A stretch of DNA of 64,000 nucleotides from a virus. Numbering within the stretch: the stretch's first letter is position 1; each line of letters starts with the position of its first letter. A program made the position numbers and the translations under genes. The DNA lies in IMG/VR virus record IMGVR_UViG_3300005099_000066, positions 1 through 64,000 of that record; one strand, given 5' to 3'. Of this stretch, positions 14,351-45,910 are shown piece after piece. Below the pieces are notes generated by a model. That model ran no database searches. It had not been told where the DNA came from and saw nothing but the letters and a program-made list of their open reading frames with translations.

Positions 14351-15826
14351 TTAGTTCTGGCTAAACTTAACAACTGTTATTCTTGCTCCACTTGGTAAGT
14401 CATAATTGAATGATATATATGGAGAACCCTGTTCTTGATAATCTTCAGTTGAACCAGGAGTTTGAAATACACCATTAACAAATACTAATATTCTACCAGA
14501 CTCATAAGAGCCAATGTCTATATTTGTGCCAGCTGTTGTGTCACTTGACAAATCAACATATGATGTAGAAACTGTATTTGATAAAAATTGTCCAGATTTA
14601 ATATACAGCTGATTACTTCCATTTTCTCCTATTGTTGTATCATCTATTTTAACAGCAACACCATTAGCACTAACATTAATAACCTTTGCTAAATTTGTTC
14701 CACCAGTAGTATCTGCTACAACAGAAAGAGCAGTTCCTCCACCTCCTGTTAATCCATTCCCAGCTACAGAAGTTGCCAAATGAGATTCTGTTATTCCACC
14801 AGATTTGACTTGAATTGTTCCAGAGGAATTTTCAATTGAAGAATCATCCACATTAACTTCTGCATAAATAGCAGGTGTATTATCATTATATGTAAACAGG
14901 ACTGAATGCCCTGAATTTGTTAGAATATTTCCAACTGCGTCCTGTGCTTTTTCGTCTGTGTAATATAAATGTGTGCTACCTTCTGCTAAATCATCAGTCG
15001 TAAATCCACTTAAAGATTTTAAGTATAAGTAATGGTTTGTAGTATCAACATCAATATTTGTTCCATCAACTTTATCAGATAAATAACCTGCAGTAGGGTC
15101 AGATGAATCCGCTTTCACATACTGGTCTGTTCCAGCTATTTGCTGAAATTCTAAACCAGTTTCCCCTGCATTTACAATAATAGCATATCCTCCATAGCCT
15201 GTGTATGAAGAAGGAGTATCATTTAAATTCAAAAATGATTTGGCATTCCAATATGTATCAAAATTTCCAGCATGTATAATCTCCCTTGCTGTTCCACCAG
15301 AATCCGTAAGAACCCATTTATCATTAGTCTCATCCCAGTATAACTGCATATCAGTTGAGTCTCCTCTCTCAACAATAATACCAGAATCCTCGGAGGGAGT
15401 GCCTGTAAATCCACTATTCAGATGAATCCATCTGTCCTCAACATGCAATTCTGTTACTGTTTCCTTATTTATTGAGCCTCCAATTGTAAAATCACCTGAT
15501 ACATATAAATTGCCTGTAATTGAAGCTCCACCTGAACTTACTGTTAATGCTCCATTGAAAGTAGCAGCACCTGCCTGTATATTTACCCAGGAAGAGTCTG
15601 TATCATCTCTTATATATAAAACTCCAGATGAATTTTTAAGCAAAATAGCAGAATTTATTTCAACTGAAGAAACGAGTATTTTAGTAGAAGAAGCATCAAA
15701 TGTTGTTGTTGTTTCTAATACTACAGTTCCAGAAGAGCCTCCGTAGAGGCTTCCAACAAGAGTATTAGAATCATTATAAATATCCAGATGTTTTCCATCT
15801 GTTAAGAGCAGATTTTTCTGAGCCAT
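14351..15826 (-). CDS. Tail-fibre-like protein
   Basis: VEDRWIHLN...SGIIVERG...LYWDETNDKW, TTDDLAEGSTHLYYTD, VAGNGLTGGGG, C-terminal VFVNGVFQ module. Confidence 0.7.
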   Translation of the reverse strand: MAQKNLLLTDGKHLDIYNDSNTLVGSLYGGSSGTVVLETTTTFDASSTKILVSSVEINSAILLKNSSGVLYIRDDTDSSWVNIQAGAATFNGALTVSSGGASITGNLYVSGDFTIGGSINKETVTELHVEDRWIHLNSGFTGTPSEDSGIIVERGDSTDMQLYWDETNDKWVLTDSGGTAREIIHAGNFDTYWNAKSFLNLNDTPSSYTGYGGYAIIVNAGETGLEFQQIAGTDQYVKADSSDPTAGYLSDKVDGTNIDVDTTNHYLYLKSLSGFTTDDLAEGSTHLYYTDEKAQDAVGNILTNSGHSVLFTYNDNTPAIYAEVNVDDSSIENSSGTIQVKSGGITESHLATSVAGNGLTGGGGTALSVVADTTGGTNLAKVINVSANGVAVKIDDTTIGENGSNQLYIKSGQFLSNTVSTSYVDLSSDTTAGTNIDIGSYESGRILVFVNGVFQTPGSTEDYQEQGSPYISFNYDLPSGARITVVKFSQN

Positions 15827-15842
15827 AAATCAGTGCCTCCTT

Positions 15843-16460
15843 TTATGTGAATATTACAAAATCAATTATTGCTCCAGAAGGTAAATCATATGTGAATGAA
15901 ATAGATGTTGAAGAATCTTCAGTATATTCTTCATTTTTTGTTTGTAAAACTCCATTTACATAAACCATCAAATTATTCTCTCCAACTGAATATGACCTTC
16001 CATTTGGTATTGTAATAGATGTTCCAGCTGTAATATCTGATGGTGCTGTATAAGTTTCTCTGTATATTGTAAGTGATACAGAAGTTCCACCATTTCCTCC
16101 TTCTCCAAGACAAAAGACATCATTTAAAGCTGTATTTATTTTTTCCCATGATTTATCCAGGAGTGGTTTAACAACAGCTTCAATAATAGATTTGAGTAAG
16201 ACTTCACGCAGTGATTTAAGTATAGAAACAAATGGTTCCTGCTTAAGATTGATTTGTTGAATAATTGATAGAATCTGTTGTTCTGTATTTGAATCCAGTT
16301 CATGTTCAGATATATACTTCTGTAAATAGGATTTGAGATTTTCTGGATAGTATTCATCAAATAAATCAGGGTATTGAGAAATAATGTAATCATAAATATT
16401 GTCGACAATGCTGGAAATGTCAAGTCGTATTGGGCAATTGTATGTGTTTTCATTTAACAC
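15843..16460 (-). CDS. Virion protein with C-terminal VYVNGVLQ Ig-like module
   Basis: C-terminal domain homologous to that of 14351-15826. Confidence 0.6.
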   Translation of the reverse strand: MLNENTYNCPIRLDISSIVDNIYDYIISQYPDLFDEYYPENLKSYLQKYISEHELDSNTEQQILSIIQQINLKQEPFVSILKSLREVLLKSIIEAVVKPLLDKSWEKINTALNDVFCLGEGGNGGTSVSLTIYRETYTAPSDITAGTSITIPNGRSYSVGENNLMVYVNGVLQTKNEEYTEDSSTSISFTYDLPSGAIIDFVIFT

Positions 16461-16472
16461 ATCCTACCTTCC

Positions 16473-17825
16473 CTATTTGGTTTTATCAAACACAGTCAGA
16501 AATCTTGGAGAGGACATATAGCCAAACGAATGTAGAGTAATAGCATCTGAGTAGATTCTGTAGCCTATATCAGTTCTAAAATAACCATCGGGTATATGTA
16601 TATGATTTAACAGATTTTTATATGCCTGTAAAATAGCAGGCTCAAGTTTTGGATGTTTTCCTACAGACACAATAGCTCTTCCATGTGAAGGAACAATTCT
16701 GTAAACTCCATCTTCATCTTTGTAAATTCCAGCTGGAATATGTTTGTTAATAAAATCTGGCTTGTCAAGATAAACAGGACTGTTAGCAGATTCTTCTAAA
16801 ACACAAGCAAATGGATAACCTTTAGCATTGTAAGCAACTCCAACTAACCAATCTGAATCAATATCTACTTTTTTCATTAAGCCTTTTGGAATATCATGAA
16901 ATATCTTTCCGAGGGGAGTTCTTATAGCTGGCAACATTATTAAAATATGTGGATAACCAAATCTTGCTGTATATTCAAGAAAATAAGGTTTGCCATCTTC
17001 ATATGATACAATCGCATTTATGTCTATATAATTTACACCATAGTATTTTGAATACCATCTTTCTCTTCCCTTATCACCAAACATTAATTGAAATAATTTG
17101 TCTGAATCATCATATCCATTATTGTTGAATATTACTGTTCCCATCTCACCTGTCATTGGTCCTATTTCTCCTGGGAACAATCTTTTGTGCTCAAAATTCA
17201 TATTCCATGGGAATACATATCCATTTGGAGAAACAAATAAGCCAATAGCTACTTCAACACCTTCTATATATTCTGTAATTACAAGTTCTGTTGAATCATC
17301 TACACCTTTCTCAATTAAACCTTTCAAGTGGTCTATGGCATCATCTTTTCCAAATGCAACATATGTTTTAATAGAAGAATCTCCTACTTTGTTGACTTTA
17401 ATTACAGGTCTGGAGAATTCTCCTGATTTTATATCACTAATTGCCTCTTTTATAGAAGAGTAAATTTTTGATTTGGGAAAATAATCATACAGATTTTTGT
17501 CTTTAGCAAACATTCTTTCATTTTCCAGCCTTTCACCTATTGAACTTGTTCCCCAGACTGTTTTTCCTTCTTTTCTCAGTTTATCAACTGTTTGTCCCCA
17601 TCCCATATCAGGAAATACAATAACATCAACTTTGTCTATATATGGTTCCCAGTTGTCTATTCTTTTTACACCAAAGTCTTCCAAAATCCCTTTTCCATAC
17701 AATAAGTCTGCCTGTTCAGGATGTGCTCTTTGCCAAACTGTGTAGTAGTAAACCTCTTCACCTTCATTTGCAAGTCTAATAGCAATTGCTTCAGATAAAC
17801 CTGTGTCAACTATAAGATATTTCAT
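16473..17825 (-). CDS. PurD/GARS-like ATP-grasp ligase
   Basis: LENERMFAK, EYIEGVE, FEHKRLFPGEIGPMTGEMG, LEYTARFGYP, FRTDIG match PurD landmarks. Start moved to ATG 17825 after AGGAGG. Confidence 0.85.
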   Translation of the reverse strand: MKYLIVDTGLSEAIAIRLANEGEEVYYYTVWQRAHPEQADLLYGKGILEDFGVKRIDNWEPYIDKVDVIVFPDMGWGQTVDKLRKEGKTVWGTSSIGERLENERMFAKDKNLYDYFPKSKIYSSIKEAISDIKSGEFSRPVIKVNKVGDSSIKTYVAFGKDDAIDHLKGLIEKGVDDSTELVITEYIEGVEVAIGLFVSPNGYVFPWNMNFEHKRLFPGEIGPMTGEMGTVIFNNNGYDDSDKLFQLMFGDKGRERWYSKYYGVNYIDINAIVSYEDGKPYFLEYTARFGYPHILIMLPAIRTPLGKIFHDIPKGLMKKVDIDSDWLVGVAYNAKGYPFACVLEESANSPVYLDKPDFINKHIPAGIYKDEDGVYRIVPSHGRAIVSVGKHPKLEPAILQAYKNLLNHIHIPDGYFRTDIGYRIYSDAITLHSFGYMSSPRFLTVFDKTK

Positions 17826-17827
17826 TA

Positions 17828-18172
17828 TTAGTCCTCCTGGAATTCTACATTTATATAGTTGAGCCAATCTGTAGGGAATGTTTTCATAAGATAATCCTGT
17901 ATTGTTTGTCTTATAAATTCACTTATTTTTCTCCTTCTTATGTAAATGTCTATATAGGAATCTTCATTCATTTTGTCAACACGAGGTTCTACAACTATAC
18001 ATGATTCACTTCCAACTTGTTCCTCTGCAAATGTTACAAAATCCTTCAGAAGTGCAATAAATACATCTTTGTCAACATTTATGCTATTTACAAAGTTTTC
18101 GAAGTCATCTTTATTACTCACAATTACAGTTGTTTTATCTGTCAAAAATGAAACAAATGTTCCGTAATCCAT
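17828..18172 (-). CDS. Hypothetical protein between the two ATP-grasp genes
   Basis: AGGAGGTGG RBS; tiles. Confidence 0.6.
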   Translation of the reverse strand: MDYGTFVSFLTDKTTVIVSNKDDFENFVNSINVDKDVFIALLKDFVTFAEEQVGSESCIVVEPRVDKMNEDSYIDIYIRRRKISEFIRQTIQDYLMKTFPTDWLNYINVEFQED

Positions 18173-18182
18173 GTTCCACCTC

Positions 18183-19424
18183 CTAATACAAAATTCCTTC
18201 AGTTTGAGAAATCCATTGTTTTATTGTGCTAATTAAATCCTTATCATAAAACTTACCCTCAAAGTCTATCCAGTTGTTTGCTATGTCCAGAATTTTCTTC
18301 CAGGCATTGTCAACTGTTTTGTCATTTACCATGATTAAGCCAACTAAATCATCTCCTGGAATGAAATAATAATTATTCTTTACTTTAGCAACTCTTCTAA
18401 ATTCCCATTCTCTTAAACACTCCATATCTGGATTATCAAACATCTTTCCAGTTATTTTTAACCATTCGTCAGTATTTTTAGTAGCCAAATACAAACCAAC
18501 AAGCCAATTACCATTTACATTCCAGGGCACAGATTTTGCCTTTCCTGTTGCAATATGATATAGAAAGTCTGTATAATTTTTCAGGTATTTAGTCCAGAAT
18601 AAAGACAATGACTGAGCAAATCTGGAAGTAATATCAGTAACATATAGATTTTTATTTTTATCCATAAATCCTTCCAGAGAAAAGGGACCAGTGTAATTTG
18701 ATGCTTCCTTTTGACTAAATATCTTTTCTAATATTCCATTCCACAAAGATTTTTCAACTATCTTTAAAATATAGCCTGTTCCAGTAGCAAGTCCTACAGT
18801 GTATGGTTTTAGAATTTTGCCTTTGGATACCCAGACATCACATCCCACTTCAATCATATTTCTCATGTTTCTTTGTATTATTATAGGAGAAGTCTCGGAG
18901 AAGGGACCAATTGCACTTCTTAATTCTTCCAGCTTTGTTTTAGTATTACTATCATCTTTGGCATACCATGTGTCAATATTACCTCTAAAAATAGAATCAA
19001 CTTTTACCCAACAATCGTAATTGTATTGTTTAATTAAAACATAGGCTTCATCTACACCTTTAGCAATTTTGTATTCAGGAACTTTAACACCTATCTTATC
19101 AAGAAATTTGTAGCCTCTTGATTTGGAAATTTCATACTGTTCTAATTCTGCTCCAGACACGACATAATTTTTCTCAGATTTTAAGTAATTCACAAAATGC
19201 CCCATTCCAACATCAACAAATACAAGCAAATCGTAATTGTCTAACTCTCCAAAATCATATATTCTTCTGAATGAATCAAAACCCATACCTATTGCATATT
19301 CTTCCAGTCTTGGAAAGCCTTTTGAAATAGGAGTAAATAAATACACATCATGCCCATCAAAAGCCATTCTTGTGGCTTGTCCAAGTCCTGCAAATCCCTC
19401 TGTATCAACTACTAATATTTTCAT
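18183..19424 (-). CDS. Second, divergent PurD-like ATP-grasp protein
   Basis: MKILVVDT..G...A.RMAFDGHDVYLF parallels the paralog's MKYLIVDTG..A.RLANEGEEVYYY; IEVGCD, FSLEG, TDITSRF. Confidence 0.7.
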   Translation of the reverse strand: MKILVVDTEGFAGLGQATRMAFDGHDVYLFTPISKGFPRLEEYAIGMGFDSFRRIYDFGELDNYDLLVFVDVGMGHFVNYLKSEKNYVVSGAELEQYEISKSRGYKFLDKIGVKVPEYKIAKGVDEAYVLIKQYNYDCWVKVDSIFRGNIDTWYAKDDSNTKTKLEELRSAIGPFSETSPIIIQRNMRNMIEVGCDVWVSKGKILKPYTVGLATGTGYILKIVEKSLWNGILEKIFSQKEASNYTGPFSLEGFMDKNKNLYVTDITSRFAQSLSLFWTKYLKNYTDFLYHIATGKAKSVPWNVNGNWLVGLYLATKNTDEWLKITGKMFDNPDMECLREWEFRRVAKVKNNYYFIPGDDLVGLIMVNDKTVDNAWKKILDIANNWIDFEGKFYDKDLISTIKQWISQTEGILY

Positions 19425-20344
19425 TCTATTAAATCTATTGCGTTATTATAGTAGAACTCTATAAGATTATCAATTTCATCTATAACAGCATCAAAGAATT
19501 TTCTTTCTTCTTCAAATAATTTGATATTATATCTGGAAGCAACTATATCCACATTTCCCTTTCTCCAAAATCCGTCAGGACAATAAACTAAAACATTTTT
19601 ATCTCTGAATAAACCAAGTTCAAGAAGTGTTATAGGGGATTTTGTTCCAGGCACAAAGTAATAAATATTTATATCAGTTAATTCCTGACTCATCAATTCC
19701 CATTCAACTTGTTCTCTAAAATATGGATTATTTATGCTTTGTTCCCACGAAGAATCCCAGTCATCTCTGCGAGGATTTACTATGAAGACAATATATGATA
19801 ATTCGTTGTCTTTTGCATAATTTTTCAAGTAGGAATATATATGGTTTGTTAACCTTTTTTGCCAATTTTCAGCTGTTCCCATCTCAATAGAACCACCCAG
19901 AAATATTGAAACTGGAAATTCTCCTATATCAAGAAAGTAATTATACAAAGGTTTCCATTCAGTAGGAGCTTTTATTTCATACAACAGAATCTTTGTTGTT
20001 TCATTAACCAATTTTATTTCATTATCATTCAATTCAGAATCTTCTTCGAAATTTTTTAACAGAGTATCAAGAAAAAGCTGTTTTTCTGTTTTGGATAGAG
20101 ATTTGAGATATTTTGTTTTGAATTTATTAAATGTGTTTTTATTCATAAGAATTTTTTCAATAGCAATATCTTTGAAAATCAGAGTGTCCTTTAAATAATC
20201 TGGAAGAAACAGTTTTTCTGCTGCTTCATTTGATTTTTCCAAAAAAGCCATAAGAAGATTGTAAATTTCTTTTTCAGAAGAAGGTGTTTCAGGGAAAGTA
20301 ATTTTGAAAATCGAAGGCTGTTCTGTTGGCTTAAATTCCCACAT
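19421..20344 (-). CDS. Nucleoside 2-deoxyribosyltransferase-like protein (C-terminal domain) with an N-terminal extension
   Basis: IFLGGSIEMG.AENWQ...NPRRDDWD...QVEWEL...SPITLLELG...CPDGFWRKGNVDIV. Confidence 0.85.
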   Translation of the reverse strand: MWEFKPTEQPSIFKITFPETPSSEKEIYNLLMAFLEKSNEAAEKLFLPDYLKDTLIFKDIAIEKILMNKNTFNKFKTKYLKSLSKTEKQLFLDTLLKNFEEDSELNDNEIKLVNETTKILLYEIKAPTEWKPLYNYFLDIGEFPVSIFLGGSIEMGTAENWQKRLTNHIYSYLKNYAKDNELSYIVFIVNPRRDDWDSSWEQSINNPYFREQVEWELMSQELTDINIYYFVPGTKSPITLLELGLFRDKNVLVYCPDGFWRKGNVDIVASRYNIKLFEEERKFFDAVIDEIDNLIEFYYNNAIDLIE

Positions 20345-20354
20345 AATAGTCTCC

Positions 20355-20726
20355 TTACAGTTTTACAAAGTTGTAAAAATCTTCAATTTTATTCAAAACA
20401 AATTTCCTTATCTTTCTTTGTCTCATAAGTTTTACTCTTTCTTCAGGAAAATTCCAGGAATACTCTAATTCAGCCAATTCGTAATATCTCTCAGCTTCTT
20501 CAGCAATCACATATTTTAATTCTTCCAAAAAGCTTTCTGTATCACCTTTCACATCTGCCTTTACTATAAATGCTTCTTCAGTTAAATCATAATCATATTC
20601 AGCAATTTCGAAATCATACTCATCGGAATATTCCATAAATTCCTCGAATAACAACTCAAGTGAACCCAAAAGCCATTTCCAGAATGGTCTATCAAGATTC
20701 GAAACAGGAATTTTTACCTCAATCAT
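20355..20726 (-). CDS. Acidic hypothetical protein
   Basis: ATGA overlap. Confidence 0.6.
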   Translation of the reverse strand: MIEVKIPVSNLDRPFWKWLLGSLELLFEEFMEYSDEYDFEIAEYDYDLTEEAFIVKADVKGDTESFLEELKYVIAEEAERYYELAELEYSWNFPEERVKLMRQRKIRKFVLNKIEDFYNFVKL

Positions 20727-21055
20727 GATACCTTTGGTGGATTTACTATTTTGCTTTGGTCTGGAATTTCGAGTCCAGTTGTTCTTCTTATATACTCTGC
20801 CACAGATTGTTTATTTGGTCTAAACCAGCCAATTACTCCTTTCAAGTAAAGCAATTCATTTTCCTCTATTGGTAAGTTTATTAGTAATAACAGTATCAAA
20901 CCTTTATCACTGCCAGGAGGCATGTGAGCTTGAACTAACATAGGCTTTTCTACTATTACTGTCCCATCAACTTGCGTGCCTTTGTAGTAACCCATTACCC
21001 ATCCAGCATGTGTTATAAATACTACTAATTCATTTATATCAGGCATTGTTTGCAT
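20723..21055 (-). CDS. Hypothetical protein (Sm-like beta composition)
   Basis: AGGAGG RBS, directly downstream of terminase. Confidence 0.55.
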   Translation of the reverse strand: MQTMPDINELVVFITHAGWVMGYYKGTQVDGTVIVEKPMLVQAHMPPGSDKGLILLLLINLPIEENELLYLKGVIGWFRPNKQSVAEYIRRTTGLEIPDQSKIVNPPKVS

Positions 21056-21065
21056 AATAACCTCC

Positions 21066-22925
21066 TTATTTGTCTAATTCTCTTATTCGAGAAGGAATAT
21101 TCACTCCTTCTCTTCCTCCTCCAATAATTTTTGTCCCTCCAAGGGGATTTGATGGGGGAACTAACTGTCTGAGGGGAGATTCCACTCTCGCAGTTGAAAC
21201 TGTTGAAGCCTTTCCAACTGCGAGTTTTCTTGCTTCTGCTTCAGATAAAGTTATTGAATCAGTTTTAGAGTCTATATGAAACAGTTTATTAAACCAAAAG
21301 ACCAAACCAACTATTGAATCAGCAATATCCTGATATCCCGTTATTACTCTGGGCTTTGAAGAGCCTGATGGAGGCTGGAGGTTTTTAAATTGTGAAATTG
21401 CCAAATATGATTCTTCCTGGTTTGGAAATATTATTGCTGGAGGATTAGAATAAAACAGATTTTTTGCACTGATATAATCTTGCTGATTTACAGGTTTATC
21501 ATCCCATTCTTTAGCAAGATGTTTAAAAGCAGCAGTGTTCCATTTGTCTGACTTTATTTTTGTAATATTCAAATACTTTGCAAGTCTACCTATTACATCA
21601 TAATAATTCCATAAATCTACTGATACATTCTTTTGTTTATCTGTTTGCCAGACTAAAATTGCATCAACTATTAAGAGTGGAGTTCCTCTTTGTATTAAGC
21701 CATGTCCTATTGCAACTGCTGCCATACAGTCAACTTCTCCTGGGTCTATACCCATAAAGTATTCGTATGGCTCTGGTTTTCTTGTAAATCTTAAGGTATC
21801 AGGTTTGTAAACAAATTTGTTTCCATTAGCAGTTTTTATAATTTCACTTTCGGCAATTACAAGAGGCAATCTGTTTTTATCAACAAAAACATCCTCATCC
21901 AAAACTTGTAAAACAGGCATCCATCTTTCTACAGAATATCCTACTGGAAGGGCAAGATATTTAGCTACAGCTGAATTAAAATCTCTGTCAAATTGAGTTT
22001 TGAAATCCATGGGGACATCAACTTCTAAATCAAATTCTTTCACATAAATTCTAAAAGTTTCTTTGCTAAAGAATTTCTTTGGTTTGACTTGCCATGTAAA
22101 ATAGTGAGAAGTATAGGCATTATCATATTTTCCATTTTTGACTTCTTCATGTAAAATATATGTAAAATCATTCTTTTTATCGAGTCTGGGGAATGATGTT
22201 ACAAGTCCCAGGTATGGAAGCTCTCTTGTTGAAGTTGTAGCTGTATTAAAAATCTTTTCAGCATTATGGATTCCAGATTGTGAAACATGTCCAGAAGCTT
22301 CATCCATAACAAAAGCAATAAGAGTCAAACCTTCCCATGATTCATTTTTGGAGGGAACTGATATGAATTCTACATTTATTGAACTGAATTTTATTGTATT
22401 TCCAGCTATATGAATTTTTGGCAATGACCTATCACATATATGTGAATTAACTATTTTTCCATGTTCCTCAATAGGATATTTGTTGAAAAATTTTGAATTC
22501 TTTATTCTGGCCTTTACTCTGTCAAACATTTTCTGGGACTGATTCTGGTTAGTTGCGACAGTTATAATTGATATAGCATCTGCTTTTGATACTCCAAAGA
22601 AATCATGAGGGTTTGGTTCAAGAAAGTGTAGAAGATAAATAACATAAGTAATTATGTTAGCAGAAACAAGTCCCTTTCCACTTCCCTTTCCCCAAAGAAG
22701 AACAGATAAATTTGGTCTTGTTTCAGGTGTAAAAAATAAGACAGGATCCCCTTTCACTCCACCTTCTCCAATAATAGCAAGAGATTCTCTGGTTTGGACT
22801 TCAGATAATTTTACCTCATTTAAATCATTATACAAAAATTCAAGAAATGGAAGAACATTGTGTGTTGGCTTTTTGACTTCAGATTTATTCTCACTTATTA
22901 GTATTTTTCTCCAATCAGAACTCAT
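21066..22925 (-). CDS. terL: Terminase large subunit
   Basis: Walker A WGKGSGKG, VATNQNQS, Walker B FVMDEAS, TSFP coupling motif, RNase H nuclease MGIDPG...SDKWN...DIADS. Confidence 0.85.
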   Translation of the reverse strand: MSSDWRKILISENKSEVKKPTHNVLPFLEFLYNDLNEVKLSEVQTRESLAIIGEGGVKGDPVLFFTPETRPNLSVLLWGKGSGKGLVSANIITYVIYLLHFLEPNPHDFFGVSKADAISIITVATNQNQSQKMFDRVKARIKNSKFFNKYPIEEHGKIVNSHICDRSLPKIHIAGNTIKFSSINVEFISVPSKNESWEGLTLIAFVMDEASGHVSQSGIHNAEKIFNTATTSTRELPYLGLVTSFPRLDKKNDFTYILHEEVKNGKYDNAYTSHYFTWQVKPKKFFSKETFRIYVKEFDLEVDVPMDFKTQFDRDFNSAVAKYLALPVGYSVERWMPVLQVLDEDVFVDKNRLPLVIAESEIIKTANGNKFVYKPDTLRFTRKPEPYEYFMGIDPGEVDCMAAVAIGHGLIQRGTPLLIVDAILVWQTDKQKNVSVDLWNYYDVIGRLAKYLNITKIKSDKWNTAAFKHLAKEWDDKPVNQQDYISAKNLFYSNPPAIIFPNQEESYLAISQFKNLQPPSGSSKPRVITGYQDIADSIVGLVFWFNKLFHIDSKTDSITLSEAEARKLAVGKASTVSTARVESPLRQLVPPSNPLGGTKIIGGGREGVNIPSRIRELDK

Positions 22926-23076: not shown

Positions 23077-23978
23077 TAAAAGGTGAATAAAATACAAAAC
23101 CTTTGGTGGGGTGAAATTTAATCAATTCCAAACCAGAATAGTATGGAAATATATATTCAAGTATTTTGCCATGTAAATCAGCAGGGTCTTTATCTTCAGG
23201 TAGCAAAGCAACAAAGACATCATTTATAAATGACTGAAGTTTCCTGCATAATTCAAAAGCCTCTTTTTGAGCATCCCCATCTAAAGCAACAACAACAGTT
23301 TCAGGAGAGTAACAGTTCTAACAACTGTTTGTGTGTAATTGTTTTTGATAATAGAGCAACTGACGGACAATTGTATTCTTTGTATACTGATAAAGCATCC
23401 ATAATTCCTTCAGTAATAAAAAGAGGTTTTCCCAATCCAAGTGAAGTAATGGAAAATTTGAAGAGAGGTTTTTTCACTCCAGATGGATTCAGAAAGTCAT
23501 GTTTACCTACTTTTCTTAAAACATAATAATCCATATCACCTGCCCATGTATAGGATTTAAACATAAGCCATATATCAGAATTTGTTTTGTTAACAACTAT
23601 GCTGTAAAATTCCCTTGGGATTTTTGTTTTTAAATCTTCAATAGATATTCCAAGTCTCATAGCTAAATACATTTCAGAAATCAATTGTGCTTGTCCTGCT
23701 ACTTTCTGATAACCATTTGGAAAACTTAACTTGACTTCTTCAACTTCTTCTACTTTTTCGAAATCAACTATTTTTGAAGAAACAGACATAATTGTCTGAA
23801 CATAGTGTTTGGGCAAAATGGACAAACTTCCTGATTTACCACATCTGAAACAATGAAAGACTCCTTTTCGAGGATTCACATACAGATGATATTTTGAGTC
23901 AGGAGGCTTTCCTATTTCAACACAGAAGGGACAATTGAATCTTATTTCTCCTGACGAAGTCAATTTAAAATTAACCAA
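23054..23978 (-). CDS. DnaG-type primase (zinc finger + TOPRIM), interrupted by a +1 frameshift at about 23303-23317
   Basis: CPFC..H...CFRC and ITEGIMDALSV in frame 0; the +1 frame (23305-23054) supplies VVVALDGDA and LPEDKDPADL. Confidence 0.85.
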
Positions 23979-33595: not shown

Positions 33596-34438
33596 GTGAT
33601 AATAAAAACAAAAGGTAAAGTTGGATTTAATCATAATGGTGAAACATTGTTAGAGGCTTTGAAAATAACTGACGAGGAAGTTGAAAAGTTTGATGAATAT
33701 CTGGAGAAATTTTTGAATGAGCAATCTACAGAAGAAATTCCTCCGAATGTGTTGTTGCTTATACTGTATATTGTTGGGCATATTTTTATATTTCCTGACC
33801 TTCTTGTTTCCGAAAACACTGTTTCTTTTATGAGATGGATATTGTCTGTTTTTTACGAATCTAATGAAGTAGAAGTAAATGTCCCTGATGTTATTGAGTT
33901 GGAAGAAGCTGATTTGGATTTTGTTATTGTTAAGCCAGATATTCTTAATTATATATCTGAGATGGAAAAGATTTTTTGGGGAAATTTGAGAACCAGTGAG
34001 AGAATTGCTGTTGCTTATGAAAATTTTGGATATGAAGGAGTTTGTTTTCTATCTTTTGTTGTAGCTGGTATCAGAATGTATGGTGCTTCTTGTGCTGTAT
34101 TTTCGAATAGTGTAATTGAAGACTTTTTGGAGAACTTTTCAGATAAAGACAAACCTGCTTGAGGAGGCGTTGTTATGATGCCAAAATACAAAGAATGGAT
34201 TTTGGGGATTATATTGAAATTTTTTCCGAAGTATTTTAAAAAATTATCAGAGAGAACATACAAAACTGAGATTGGACTTACGGGTCATGTTAGTGACATT
34301 GATAAAATGGTGGCAAAAGAGAAAGGTCTTAAGCCTCTTAATGTGTTTGAAAGATGGTTATTGAAAGAATTTATTGCTTATGAGAAAAAGAGATTACAGC
34401 GAAATTTCAAAACAATTTTGGAAGAGTATGGAATATGA
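33596..34438 (+). CDS. Two hypothetical proteins (33596-34162; 34175-34438)
   Basis: RBS-preceded ORFs. Confidence 0.55.
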
Positions 34439-35250
34439 TAAAAACAAAATCGTATACTATGTTGCCAATTGCTGATGTGAAAATGAAACATTTGAAAGAT
34501 TTTAAGTATTACAACACAATTACTTGGTTGAGGGATGGATTTAAAGATTTATACCCAGAAGAATTTGCCATAGTGAAAACAACTTGGGGTAGATTTAACC
34601 TTGGTATGAAAATTGTAAATAGTTCTGATGTTCCAGTTGATAAAGAGAAAACATTAAAAGGATGTTCTACTTGTCCTGTATTTATTCAAAAGAAAAATTG
34701 GTCTTGTCCTCCTTTGTTTAATTCAACATTTCAAAAACAATTAATAAAAGGAGGTAATCCTGAAAAAATAACAGTGGTTTGGATGAGAACTTATTTGCCT
34801 CCAAGACTTGTGTTCTATTTGAATAATAGTAGATTTATTAAATATCTAAATTCAGGTGTTTCTAATGTTGAAGAGAATTATTTTGATAAGTGGTTACATT
34901 TCGTAAGAAAGAAAACAGAATATTATACTCTTGGTGCTGGTTCTTGTAGAGTCTGCAAACCTGCTTGTGCTGCGAAATATGGATTGCCCTGTAAAAATCC
35001 GAAGTATAGACAGCCTTCTTTAGAATCTGTTGGGGTTCTTGTTAATGAATTGATGGAGAATATAATTGGATACCCTATGTATTGGGAAAGGAGAATTTGT
35101 AAAGTTGAATTGAAGTATGAAATACCTTTATGGTATTGGTTTGTTGGAGTCATTTTTTCAAATGAATTGGATAAACAATTTTTGTTTGATGTTTTTGTTG
35201 AATCATCTAAATGTAAAGAAAAGGGATGGATATGTTTGAAAAGATTTTGA
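34435..35250 (+). CDS. DUF2284-like predicted metal-binding protein
   Basis: C..CP...NWSCPP...GAGSCRVCKPAC...PCKNP...PSLESVGVLV. Confidence 0.75.
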   Translation: MIKTKSYTMLPIADVKMKHLKDFKYYNTITWLRDGFKDLYPEEFAIVKTTWGRFNLGMKIVNSSDVPVDKEKTLKGCSTCPVFIQKKNWSCPPLFNSTFQKQLIKGGNPEKITVVWMRTYLPPRLVFYLNNSRFIKYLNSGVSNVEENYFDKWLHFVRKKTEYYTLGAGSCRVCKPACAAKYGLPCKNPKYRQPSLESVGVLVNELMENIIGYPMYWERRICKVELKYEIPLWYWFVGVIFSNELDKQFLFDVFVESSKCKEKGWICLKRF

Positions 35251-43152: not shown

Positions 43153-43539
43153 ATGAATAAAAAATTGAAAGAATTTTTTGAAAGTCTGCCAAAAATAGAA
43201 GTGCTGAAAATGACTTCCCTTTCAGAATTCGAAGAGCCATTTTCATTGATGTTTGAGTTGTATATGGCAAAGAATAAAGGTTATGGAGCTTCCTGGAGAA
43301 AGAGAGGAATTCCAAGTTCTTTTGAGAATATAAGCAGAAAATATGACAGACTTCTTGTTCAAGTAGAAAAATCTAATTTTCATCCAGAAAATCTTTCAAA
43401 TGAAGAAAAACTTGATTTCTTTGATACGGCAATTGACCTTGCTGTGTATTCATATCTTTTTCTTTGGTTTGTATATGATTTGTTTGGAGAAGAAATAGTA
43501 AAGGAGTGGAGAAAGAAAGTAGGATTGGAAAATGGATAA
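43153..43539 (+). CDS. Nmad1/DUF1599-like all-alpha nucleotide-modification-associated protein
   Basis: KNKGYGASWRKRG...NISRKYDRL...DTAIDLAVYS. Confidence 0.75.
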   Translation: MNKKLKEFFESLPKIEVLKMTSLSEFEEPFSLMFELYMAKNKGYGASWRKRGIPSSFENISRKYDRLLVQVEKSNFHPENLSNEEKLDFFDTAIDLAVYSYLFLWFVYDLFGEEIVKEWRKKVGLENG

Positions 43540-45910
43540 AACTCTGAGAGAAGAATGTAAAAATTGTATATTCTTCAATAATGCGTATGTTCCTCCAGAA
43601 TATCCTTTTGGTGATGAAAAAATTGATGTTTTGTTTATAGGAGAAGCTCCTGGGGTAGAAGAGGAAAGACTTGGAAAGCCATTTGTGGGAAGGTCAGGCC
43701 AATTATTTAGAGATGCTCTTGCTGAATTTATAAAGGAATTTCCTCATCTGAAATTTGGAATAACAAATGTTGTGAAATGCCATCCTCCCAATAATATGAC
43801 TCCCAAATCAGCTGAAATAAAATTGTGTAAGCCTTTGCTTCTTGATGAGATAGAGAAGTATGACCCAGATTTTATAATACCTTTAGGAAACACAGCTCTT
43901 CAAGCAATAGTTGGAAGGGCAGGTATTCAGAAAAATTTAAATCAAGTTATAACTAAAGTTGTTGCTGGAAGGGAGAGAACAATAATACCAACTTTTCATC
44001 CTGCTGCTATTTTAAGAAATCCTCATCTATTACAAGATTTTGTGAGAACATTTGGTATATTAGAAAAGATAATGAAAGGACAGGTTCTTGAGTTGGAGGA
44101 TTTCATAGTTGTAGATGATTTTAGGAAGATTGAAAATATGTTGAATGATTTATCAAATTCTAAAGCATTTGCTTTTGACCTTGAGACTTCTTCTTTGAAT
44201 CCTTTTTCTGAGAATGCCAAAATTCTTTGCTTGTCTTTGTCAAATGGGAAAAATACTTATGTTATCCCTGCTAAAGATTATGAGATGTCTAATCTGATTG
44301 ACTTGTTAAAAATTGTTTTTTCCCTTCCAGCTAAAAAGATTGCTCACAATGCGAAATTTGATGTGAAATGGTTAAAAGTTTTTGGTGTGGAAGTTAAGAA
44401 TCTGGCTTTTGATACTATGATAGCCCACTATTTGATTAATGAAAATTTGCCTCACTCTCTGGCTTTTATTCTATCTGAAATGGGATTTGTTGACCACAAA
44501 GGAGATTTTTCAAGAGCTGTTGGAGGGGAAACTGCTACTTGGAAGGTGTTATCTGATGAAGAAAAGCTTAATGAATACTGGGATGTTCTTCTTGAGTATA
44601 ATGCGAAAGATGCTTGGTCAACTTATTTAATCTATGAGAAATTAAAAGATAAACTCGAATCAAGTCAGGTTTGGTTAATGGAAAATTTTTATATTCCTTT
44701 GATATACACATTTTCAGAAATAGAAATTTATGGGATGAAAGTTGATTTGAATAGAATCCAGTATTTATCCCAGAAGTATAAGAATGAAATGAAGAAAATT
44801 ATATCTGAAATGGAAAATTTATCGTCCGTCAAATTTTGGAAGACTCTACATCCTGATGAAAAATTTAATCCATCTTCGACAAAGCAAGTTGCTGAAATTA
44901 TTTTTGATATAGAGAAATTAGAAGTTATTGCTATGACTCCGAAAGGAGCACCATCGACAAAGAGTGAATTTCTTGAATTTCTTGCCTCGAAATCGAAATT
45001 TGTTAAATTGTTGTTAGAATATAGGAAAATTATGAAAAACGAAACTGCTTTTATAAAAGGCATTCAAAAACATATAAAAATAGATGGATGTGTTCATCCC
45101 TCTTATAATCTTATTGGAACAGTGACGGGCAGAATATCTTGTAGAGAGCCAAACATACAACAGATACCAAAAGATTCAGAAATAAGAACAATATTTGTTC
45201 CAAAACTTGATTGGTTTATAGAAGCTGACTTTTCACAAATAGAGTTAAGAGTTGCTGCTTCTTTGTCTGGGGACCCATATATGATTGATGCTTATAAAAA
45301 AGGTGAAGACTTACATACAAAAACTGCTTCTTCCATATTTGGGAAGAGACCAGAAGAGGTTTCAGAAGAAGAACGATTTGTGGCAAAAACTATTAATTTT
45401 GGTATTTTGTATGGAATGGGAGCAAAGAGTTTACAGGCAAGAGTTTCCAGAGAAGGAATAAATATACCTTTGAAAAAGGCAGAAGAATATATCAGAAAGT
45501 TCTTTATAGCCTATCCTGTTTTGAAAGCTTGGGTAGATGAGCAAAAATCAAAAGTTCTTGGTTCCAGAATGGTAGTGTCTCCTTTTGGAAGAATTAGAAG
45601 ATTAATGGGAACTTCTGATGATGATTTGAGACAGGGTGTAAATGCTCCTGTTCAGGGAACTGCTTCTGATTTAACTTTGTTTTCTGTGATGTTTCTTCAC
45701 AATGAATTTAAAAGGAGAGGTTTGAAATCCCATATAGTAGGTTCAGTTCATGATTCAATATTATTTGATGTGGCTGATGAAGAATTACACTGTGTTGTGA
45801 CTCTAATAAAACAGATAATGGAAGGACTTGATTTTGATTTTATAAAAGTTCCTTTGAAAGTAGATGTTGCAATAGGAAAGGCATGGGGAGAAATTTTAAT
45901 GGAGGTATAA
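43532..45910 (+). CDS. polA: Family A DNA polymerase with N-terminal family-4 uracil-DNA glycosylase domain and 3'-5' exonuclease
   Basis: CxxC, GEAPG, PFVGRSG, VKCHPP, FHPAAILR; FDLET, HNAKFD, YNAKD; ADFSQIELR, AKTINFGILYG, VHDS. Confidence 0.95.
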   Translation: MDKTLREECKNCIFFNNAYVPPEYPFGDEKIDVLFIGEAPGVEEERLGKPFVGRSGQLFRDALAEFIKEFPHLKFGITNVVKCHPPNNMTPKSAEIKLCKPLLLDEIEKYDPDFIIPLGNTALQAIVGRAGIQKNLNQVITKVVAGRERTIIPTFHPAAILRNPHLLQDFVRTFGILEKIMKGQVLELEDFIVVDDFRKIENMLNDLSNSKAFAFDLETSSLNPFSENAKILCLSLSNGKNTYVIPAKDYEMSNLIDLLKIVFSLPAKKIAHNAKFDVKWLKVFGVEVKNLAFDTMIAHYLINENLPHSLAFILSEMGFVDHKGDFSRAVGGETATWKVLSDEEKLNEYWDVLLEYNAKDAWSTYLIYEKLKDKLESSQVWLMENFYIPLIYTFSEIEIYGMKVDLNRIQYLSQKYKNEMKKIISEMENLSSVKFWKTLHPDEKFNPSSTKQVAEIIFDIEKLEVIAMTPKGAPSTKSEFLEFLASKSKFVKLLLEYRKIMKNETAFIKGIQKHIKIDGCVHPSYNLIGTVTGRISCREPNIQQIPKDSEIRTIFVPKLDWFIEADFSQIELRVAASLSGDPYMIDAYKKGEDLHTKTASSIFGKRPEEVSEEERFVAKTINFGILYGMGAKSLQARVSREGINIPLKKAEEYIRKFFIAYPVLKAWVDEQKSKVLGSRMVVSPFGRIRRLMGTSDDDLRQGVNAPVQGTASDLTLFSVMFLHNEFKRRGLKSHIVGSVHDSILFDVADEELHCVVTLIKQIMEGLDFDFIKVPLKVDVAIGKAWGEILMEV

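Follow-up and report, generated by a model that had tools for sequence, protein, structure and literature searches.

Small-molecule ATP-grasp amide ligases such as D-Ala-D-Ala ligase, L-amino-acid ligases and glutathionylspermidine synthetase, and protein-modifying ones such as RimK, TTL and R2K, form an acyl-phosphate and convert it to an amide; the phage ligases described here are presumed to share this chemistry. PurD, the GAR synthetase, joins glycine to phosphoribosylamine in this manner. A PurD-like sequence is not always a PurD: by the same criteria as those applied here, Brown et al. 2011 (PMC3261824) concluded that comparable "extra" PurD-like proteins of haloarchaea are no GAR synthetases. 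In this study, two PurD-like genes were analysed in a 64,000-nucleotide (nt) stretch of viral DNA (the window), which comprises bases 1-64000 of the 76,948-bp linear IMG/VR virus record IMGVR_UViG_3300005099_000066. A first reading of the window (the original prediction) had taken them for one ligase and one degenerate copy. We are fairly confident that they encode two PurD-derived ligases of late phage operons, neither of which is PurD; this is a general statement and names no single target. No paper on phage PurD-like ligases was found in the literature.

The gene of the first ligase, family A, was called as an open reading frame (ORF) of 464 amino acids (aa) (W464; 16473..17867, minus strand). 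The stop codon of the preceding 114-aa ORF lies 2 nt before an ATG at 17825, which is most likely the true start and would give a product of 450 aa, because an AGGAGG ribosome-binding site precedes this ATG and the homologues begin there. In Pfam, W464 matched GARS_A (E-value 2.7e-12) and GARS_C, and GARS_N (PF02844) was not matched, an absence seen throughout family A. With the TIGR00877 PurD equivalog of NCBIfam it scored 108.7 bits against a cut-off of 288, over positions 81-423 only. An AlphaFold2 model built from an 88-sequence alignment reached a predicted local distance difference test score (pLDDT) of 89 and a predicted template-modelling score of 0.90. In a Foldseek search, the top 14 structures were all PurD (template-modelling (TM) scores of 0.65-0.81, 18-22% identity), matched over all four domains; biotin carboxylases and PurK came after them. 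The motif changes named in the original prediction are present in the alignments: the position of the GxGGREHA loop of PurD reads DTGLSEA, a loop that varies across family A, GPNTGGMG has become GPMTGEMG, and RFGDPE has become RFGYPH. The magnesium motif E-x-T (LEYT) replaces the E-x-N of PurD, and the conserved Asp of PS00184 (R[LF]GDPE) is absent. Family A has a signature of its own (GPxTGEMGT, LEFTxRFGYP and YRTDIG), with 33 invariant columns in the 88-sequence alignment, and E-x-T-x-R-x-G-Y-P is invariant across all 88 sequences. W464 keeps 33 of the 33 invariant residues and scores 479 bits with the hidden Markov model (HMM) of the family. K157, E205, D282 and E298 are invariant in family A; the fold, the ATP-binding Lys and the acidic metal ligands together place W464 among the ATP-grasp enzymes, with residue roles assigned by analogy.

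A genuine auxiliary GAR synthetase that boosts the nucleotide supply of the host would agree with the PurD fold and with the name "phosphoribosylamine--glycine ligase", under which many members are entered in databases. Against it stand the score below the equivalog cut-off and the loss of GARS_N, of the PS00184 Asp and of the Asn magnesium ligand. In addition, each of five cellular genomes (G001-G005) carries a family-A gene together with a separate full-length PurD-type gene; four of these five PurD-type genes score above the TIGR00877 cut-off, and the one from Nitrosopumilales reaches 166 bits. The original prediction had noted that no other purine gene accompanies the ligases, and neither an AIRS (PurM/PurL) nor a PurN-type domain was found in the whole 77-kb record. 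The gene also lies in a packaging operon and not with the ribonucleotide reductase and polymerase genes. The auxiliary GAR synthetase is thus largely refuted and hardly credible, in line with the earlier view that the locus does not serve de novo purine synthesis. W464 is PurD-shaped, but it is not PurD.

A word-indexed search with W464 returned 1190 proteins at an E-value of at most 1e-5. Its closest relatives are metagenomic (39-98% identity), and one of them is encoded on a 73-kb viral contig (L004/L005). Several virus-dominated clusters represent family A in the Atlas. A scan of IMG/VR revealed at least 71 family-A viral loci, and species genomes yielded more than 571 family-A matches, of which the best 80 were analysed; these belong to Acidobacteriota, Nitrososphaeria, DPANN archaea, Candidate Phyla Radiation (CPR) bacteria, Omnitrophota and others. 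A tblastn search of GenBank phages gave credible viral matches only to MW202796 and two Aquificae viruses, and the remaining matches look like bacterial PurD in contaminated records. Only one of two ORFs of about 405 aa in an Aquificae virus is PurD-like.

The original prediction had put forward phylogeny against cellular PurD as a check. In a tree of 137 proteins built with FastTree, which was rooted with five canonical PurDs and has an unresolved backbone, the PurD-like proteins formed a single group apart from canonical PurD with 100% Shimodaira-Hasegawa-like support. W464 fell outside canonical PurD, in a viral clade (98%) with L005, P0002-P0006, L064 and L006/L044. The 65 cellular sequences grouped into a single shallow clade (99%); the deep lineages around it were all viral. 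Sampling of the 80 best matches accounts for part of its shallowness. This clade looks like the cross-domain spread of one viral-type branch. The cellular family-A genes (L076-L155) were also seen to be near-identical within each phylum-level group.

The second ligase gene (18183..19424, minus strand) encodes a protein of 413 aa (W413). It has no Pfam match and no PurD match in Pfam or NCBIfam, and its matches among PDB sequences are chance matches only. W413 is nevertheless homologous to family A (hhalign probability 99.2%, E-value 3.7e-19, 370 columns), of whose invariant residues it keeps 13 of 33. A word-indexed search found only W413 itself, a sensitivity limit of that search; the notion of a protein without relatives was overturned by an exhaustive phmmer search, which returned 737 cluster representatives at an E-value of at most 1e-3 and 334 at 1e-10 or below. 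These relatives, here called family B, are mostly about 400-430 aa long and 25-35% identical to W413 over nearly the full length. Their signature is FRGDxET, SxE and DxTxR, and they have neither the GEMGT loop nor the C-terminal RxDIG. Near-invariant residues, taken as those at least 90% conserved in a 70-sequence alignment, include D7, G46, G48, D65, D71, E98, K141, R147-G148 (in FRGDxET), E192, G194, D196, Y244, G246, E251, D264 and R268. W413 keeps 19 of the 21 near-invariant residues (the changes are G90S and R101K); at less conserved sites it carries E213A and P272S. K141, E192, E251, D264 and R268 of W413 are conserved in 87-99% of family B, and W413 is likewise placed among the ATP-grasp enzymes, where its putative ATP and metal residues are assigned by analogy. 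The two HMMs separate the families cleanly, at 300-480 bits for the own family and 24-121 for the other. W413 itself scored 396.8 bits with the family-B HMM and 70.5 with that of family A, and proteins of the family-B loci gave 297-484 and 24-121 bits, respectively. By these profile scores and residues, W413 is classified as a member of a separate, conserved PurD-derived family B and not as a decayed copy; the term "degenerate" used for it earlier does not suit a protein that retains 19 of 21 residues of its own family.

Inteins typically occupy essential catalytic motifs. Inteins that contain LAGLIDADG domains were seen at two sites of family A: they split the GPx|TGEMGT loop in L065:8004-10277 and L075:8001-10274, and the EFT|xRFGYP motif in the proteins P0021 and P0033. 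The two interrupted segments are the most conserved in the family. Among family-B-type sequences, some of 759-933 aa align in two parts, the pattern expected of forms that carry an intein, and are candidate intein carriers. Because inteins tend to sit in such motifs, their position points to selection on catalysis, and families A and B are probably working enzymes.

An alternative is that W413 is catalytically dead and acts as the heterodimer partner of an active W464, as in the active and pseudo-enzyme pair of the original prediction. The low share of family-A invariants in W413, its lack of the Glu213 of its own family and the adjacency of A and B genes, both here and in the viral locus L019, would agree with such a pair. 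Family B, however, has a Lys/Glu/Asp/Arg core of its own, which W413 retains, and its intein-length split matches argue in the same direction. A total of 53 family-B viral loci were found with a 12-sequence family-B subset; the gene was called in 50, and in all 50 B stands by itself, without a family-A gene at a distance of up to 8 kb. A dead partner is therefore improbable.

Among about 118 loci, adjacent A and B genes occur only in the window and in L019. L019:1592-6687 (the same DNA as L216:1836-9124) was observed to read, in order, A, a 237-aa helical/zinc-ribbon-like ORF, B and a 582-aa protein; the last has weak, distant similarity to the terminase-like protein of the window. In the complete 160-kb genome G007, a distance of 8.3 kb separates two A-type genes; in G008, a B-leaning gene lies 11.5 kb from an A gene. 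A pair of PurD-like genes is thus a repeated feature of L019 and of the clade to which the window belongs. This recurrence speaks for two roles that are not redundant rather than for a duplicate in decay, and it suggests two non-redundant ligation steps or substrates in this lineage.

Families A and B occur widely in uncultured tailed phages, normally as a single copy in a packaging, head or tail operon. The viral family-A gene is co-oriented with large neighbours and mostly adjoins terminase, portal, ejection or fibre genes; in some loci TerL lies directly upstream and the portal gene directly downstream. Other neighbours are proteins of 1200-1700 aa, matches to the PHROG category "DNA ejection protein", tail fibres, baseplate gp5/gp25-like proteins, an SU10 adaptor, a holin and an amidase. 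No enzymatic partner recurred among 124 small same-strand neighbours of family-A genes, and neither a decarboxylase nor a racemase was found among these 124. No small ORF is conserved beside the family-A genes; those that are adjacent are mutually unrelated. Family B is found in three contexts: TerL, a small ORF, B and then portal (with MuF); portal, a small ORF and B; and TerL followed at some distance by a 761-aa protein, a 130-aa protein and B. The 130-aa neighbour is an HExxE protein, which was found at 12 of 50 B loci, also in the order portal, HExxE protein and B, and at 2 of 68 A loci; the window lacks it. This protein of about 125-170 aa has the motifs HELxE...EPGDDP...APY and lies directly upstream of B in most of the 12 loci (L171-L173, L177, L179, L186, L191, L196, L198, L205, L208 and L211); in family A (L038:7039-7425 and L057:7661-8038) it is directly upstream or one gene away. 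The original prediction had put forward co-occurrence with terL and thymidylate-synthase-like genes as a check: TerL stands beside both families, and no thymidylate-synthase-like or DNA-kinase partner was found adjacent to either.

In the window, the ligase genes belong to an unbroken minus-strand gene run from 22925 to 12948, in which neighbours overlap by 4 nt or are spaced by 2-17 nt. The proteins of the run measure, in order, 619, 110, 123, 307, 413, 114, 464, 205, 491 and 461 aa. The four ORFs of the original prediction lie in it between 20344 and 16473, tightly packed on the minus strand as described, and the predicted flanks are represented by a terminase-like gene and by genes with weak virion and fibre matches. 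The first gene (21066..22925, minus strand) encodes a large-terminase-like protein of the MJ0330_N P-loop type. This 619-aa protein has no match in Pfam, PHROG or PDB sequences, and hhalign found no match to a TerL cluster from other loci (probability 1.3%). Its neighbours in the Atlas, by feature and by structure, are viral clusters labelled MJ0330_N or "putative terminase large subunit", it carries Walker A GKGSGKG, Walker B VMDEAS and GIDPGE, and a homologue with 48% identity is encoded in the viral locus L004. On the basis of the Atlas neighbours and the motifs, the protein is terminase-like. Behind it lies a small conserved gene (20723..21055, minus strand) for a 110-aa protein, similar to a 105-aa ORF of L004 between the terminase-like and PurD-like genes (BLASTP E-value 6e-9). 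Downstream of the family-A gene, the 205-aa and 491-aa genes (14351..16460, minus strand) give weak virion or fibre signals: the former matches DUF4183 (0.0038) and a tail-fibre PHROG (9.6e-4), both weakly, and the latter the virion structural protein phrog_16122 (6e-6). A weak resemblance to the next ORF after the PurD-like gene of L004 was also seen here.

The gene upstream of W413 (19421..20344, minus strand) encodes an NDT-like protein of 307 aa. It matches PF15891 (Nuc_deoxyri_tr2) at residues 145-259 (4.2e-26; 91.8 bits against a cut-off of 30) and phrog_30579 (2e-37). The NDT/Rcl/MilB-type domain comprises residues from about 118 to 307, and residues 1-117 form a lineage-specific helical extension; in the AlphaFold2 model, pLDDT exceeds 85 at 120-300 and is below 60 for most of 1-117. 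In Foldseek, the best structure for the domain was 4mcj (TM 0.85), followed by MilB, DNPH1/Rcl and NDTs. The domain keeps 22 of 22 family-invariant columns, including E154, E216 and E242, and has the conserved acidic residues of the family, the Glu of the LLELG segment among them; the protein may be assigned to the PF15891 branch of the NDT/Rcl/MilB superfamily as a predicted glycosidase or transferase. No demonstrated activity for any member of this branch was found in the literature searched. At least 1888 homologues were found; nearly all are solo proteins of about 170 aa with about 50% identity to the C-terminal half only, and the single full-length match, 95% identical, shares the 1-117 extension.

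The original prediction had joined the NDT-like gene and the two ligases into one system. Such a three-enzyme modification of nucleotides or DNA, in which the NDT-like protein cleaves or exchanges a base and the ligases acylate an amine on a nucleotide or on DNA before packaging, draws on the contiguity of the NDT-like, B, 114-aa and A genes, whose frames overlap or nearly abut. The intact invariant residues of the NDT-like domain and its resemblance to MilB and DNPH1, which act on hydroxymethyl-CMP (hmCMP) and 5-hydroxymethyl-dUMP (5hmdUMP), would also fit, as would the ribosylamine phosphate that is PurD's natural acceptor and the DNA-metabolism arm of the window. Against this, the nearest relative, L004, has the order terminase-like gene, 105-aa ORF and A (58% identity for A). 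Because its 105-aa ORF is homologous to the 110-aa ORF of the window and the four genes in question are absent there, the genes for the 123-aa, NDT-like, B and 114-aa proteins are a four-gene insert of the window lineage. At about 70 other viral loci of family A, an HMM of the NDT-like domain found no match within 8 kb. The jumbo relatives G007 and G009 have a PF15891 gene, but at tens of kb from the ligase; it is not in the records G006 and G008, both of which are fragments. The link to a GT-B and deacetylase pair, expected to supply a free amine, was likewise not supported: these ORFs have no Pfam match at an E-value of at most 1e-3, and the 449-aa ORF, the putative GT-B gene, is missing from four related records, two of which are less than 40% complete. 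A predicted metal-binding protein of the DUF2284 type (8.3e-15; window 34435-35250, plus strand) is encoded upstream of these putative deacetylase and GT-B ORFs. Since the NDT-like gene is not co-located with family A elsewhere, is absent in L004, is distant in G007 and G009 and has overwhelmingly solo homologues, it is treated here as a probably independent, separately mobile accessory gene and not as an obligate partner. The three-enzyme system is accordingly a poor candidate. The other two genes of the insert gave few clues. The first (20355..20726, minus strand) encodes a very acidic 123-aa protein with no Pfam or PHROG match and no counterpart in L004. The 114-aa ORF between the two ligase genes (17828..18172, minus strand) had been suggested as an adaptor or substrate; it has no match in Pfam, PHROG or NCBIfam, where profile libraries only were searched, and it is unrelated to the small ORF of L004. 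With no small ORF conserved beside A genes, this suggestion is not supported.

We propose that this phage encodes two distinct ATP-grasp ligases derived from PurD, A and B, whose genes appear to be co-transcribed with the terminase-like and virion genes. ATP would phosphorylate a carboxylate to an acyl-phosphate, and attack by an amine would then give an amide with release of ADP and Pi. Because the motifs that bind phosphoribosylamine and glycine are rebuilt in both families, the acid and the amine would differ from the glycine and phosphoribosylamine of PurD. The NDT-like gene, a member of a very common phage family, would have arrived with the four-gene insert. Catalytic activity and an amide product are predicted here from the ATP-grasp superfamily, by analogy. 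In this form, with product and timing predicted, the earlier suggestion of a late, terminase-linked amide-ligase module of undescribed function is supported.

As for the target, a small metabolite of amino-acid or amine type, produced while DNA is packaged, is the candidate towards which we lean, with a probability a little short of one half. This lean rests on the small-molecule substrates usual for PurD-fold enzymes, the RxDIG of family A, the stand-alone cellular clade and the varied structural neighbours. A virion or packaging protein, modified at a side chain or a terminus, is a possible but rather less probable target; some other target is unlikely, and DNA or a nucleotide quite unlikely. 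ATP-grasp clades such as RimK, TTL and R2K act on proteins, and in the viral loci both families lie directly beside TerL, portal, DNA-ejection and fibre genes at more than 100 loci, with no conserved partner of a small-molecule pathway in the sampled neighbours. R2K has been noted in phages (PMC7824862). In view of this consistent packaging and virion context, one or both ligases may, during assembly, attach an amino acid to a capsid, portal or ejection protein or cross-link such a protein, or may themselves be virion cargo that is injected and acts in the next host. We regard this as a tentative option: the structural neighbours differ between clades, so that no one target protein varies together with the ligase, the PurD-fold enzymes that have been characterised use small molecules, and the RxDIG retained by family A hints that part of the PurD substrate site survives. 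A broader and still more speculative proposal is that A and B form the catalytic core of a widespread late-phage amide ligation during packaging, whose product joins the particle; this could be a covalent mark on a head, portal or ejection protein, or a dedicated small molecule or counter-ion, amide-linked, that is packed in together with the DNA. There would then be two successive ligations in the present lineage, and cells would have captured one family-A branch for housekeeping.

Several points weigh against two late-phage ligases with a role tied to the virion. The cellular family-A genes are chromosomal and stand alone among housekeeping genes (e.g., those for Val-tRNA synthetase and phosphofructokinase), with no conserved partner and no phage genes nearby in their neighbourhoods, which argues against a strictly virion-specific target. 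One viral family-A clade adjoins PhoH and a metallophosphoesterase in place of virion genes, so the link to the virion module is not universal. No cultured phage in GenBank had a close family member in the tblastn search. The Glu213 that W413 lacks is present in 86% of family B, and activity is less certain for W413 than for W464. The order B, 114 aa, A in the window and A, 237 aa, B in L019 could reflect physical cooperation of the two proteins. Finally, the late timing is deduced from gene order alone.

The source record is estimated by CheckV to be 61% complete. The window has a GC content of about 32%, and its coding strand changes near 24 kb: the minus-strand arm holds the virion genes, and the plus-strand arm encodes a class II-like ribonucleotide reductase, a fusion of uracil-DNA glycosylase (UDG) and PolA, a gp32-like protein and RecA. 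The fusion is a 792-aa ORF (window 43532-45910, plus strand) that combines a UDG-superfamily domain, a 3'-5' exonuclease and a family-A DNA polymerase. A primase-like 225-aa ORF (phrog_47; window 23301-23978, minus strand) stops early. Near-identical DNA is present in marine-sediment and hydrothermal-vent metagenomes, with no RNA run among the sequencing runs listed, and a blastn search of GenBank phages with the 3.9-kb region gave no match. Promoter-like sites were not enriched in the region (67, compared with 60.9 ± 8.0 in shuffles). An 11/12 match to a sigma-70-like promoter (TTGATA, a 17-nt spacer and TATAAT) was observed at 19445-19473 on the minus strand, in the 3' end of the NDT-like gene and 20 nt upstream of the start codon of the 413-aa gene.

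These results bear on how such genes are read. The database label "phosphoribosylamine--glycine ligase" is wrong for them, and in viromes they are misread as purine auxiliary metabolic genes. They form two sizeable enzyme families with hundreds of clusters at 50% identity, and in many uncultured phages their position within the packaging and morphogenesis operons is fixed. What the window adds is that the "degenerate" copy represents the second family and that related lineages keep two ligases; its NDT-like neighbour should not be used for inferring the chemistry of the ligases. Once found, the substrate would probably reveal a new step of virion assembly or a new phage-made metabolite, and it would also give a function to the cellular paralogue of many bacteria, CPR bacteria and archaea.

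Compared with known systems, the NDT-like protein is close to 4mcj (BDI_0649), MilB, DNPH1/Rcl and the NDTs, which share the fold and the family-invariant residues with its C-terminal 190 residues, and the 117-residue N-terminal extension is peculiar to its lineage. For the ligases, no other ATP-grasp enzyme gave a specific match better than PurD in sequence or structure. The haloarchaeal proteins Hlac_1553 and rrnAC0307 (PMC3261824) lack GARS_N, the magnesium sites and the Asp of R[LF]GDPE, a pattern like that of family A, although they are likened to it by description and not by alignment; they are cellular, and neither a function nor a phage link was proposed for them. PurD itself (EC 6.3.4.13; PDB 2yw2, 2ys6, 1gso and 2qk4) shares with the phage ligases the four-domain ATP-grasp fold (TM 0.65-0.81), the ATP-binding Lys, the FEHKR/DHKR-like and RF-G-x-P segments and, in family A, the C-terminal RxDIG. 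It differs from them in sequence, with identities of 18-25%, and in its motifs: GGMG is replaced by GEMG, E-x-N by E-x-T in family A or D-x-T in family B, and RFGDPE by RFGYP in family A or R(F/P)xxP in family B. Unlike PurD, the phage ligases have no GARS_N P-loop and lie in phage packaging operons, and family A occurs in cells alongside the true PurD.

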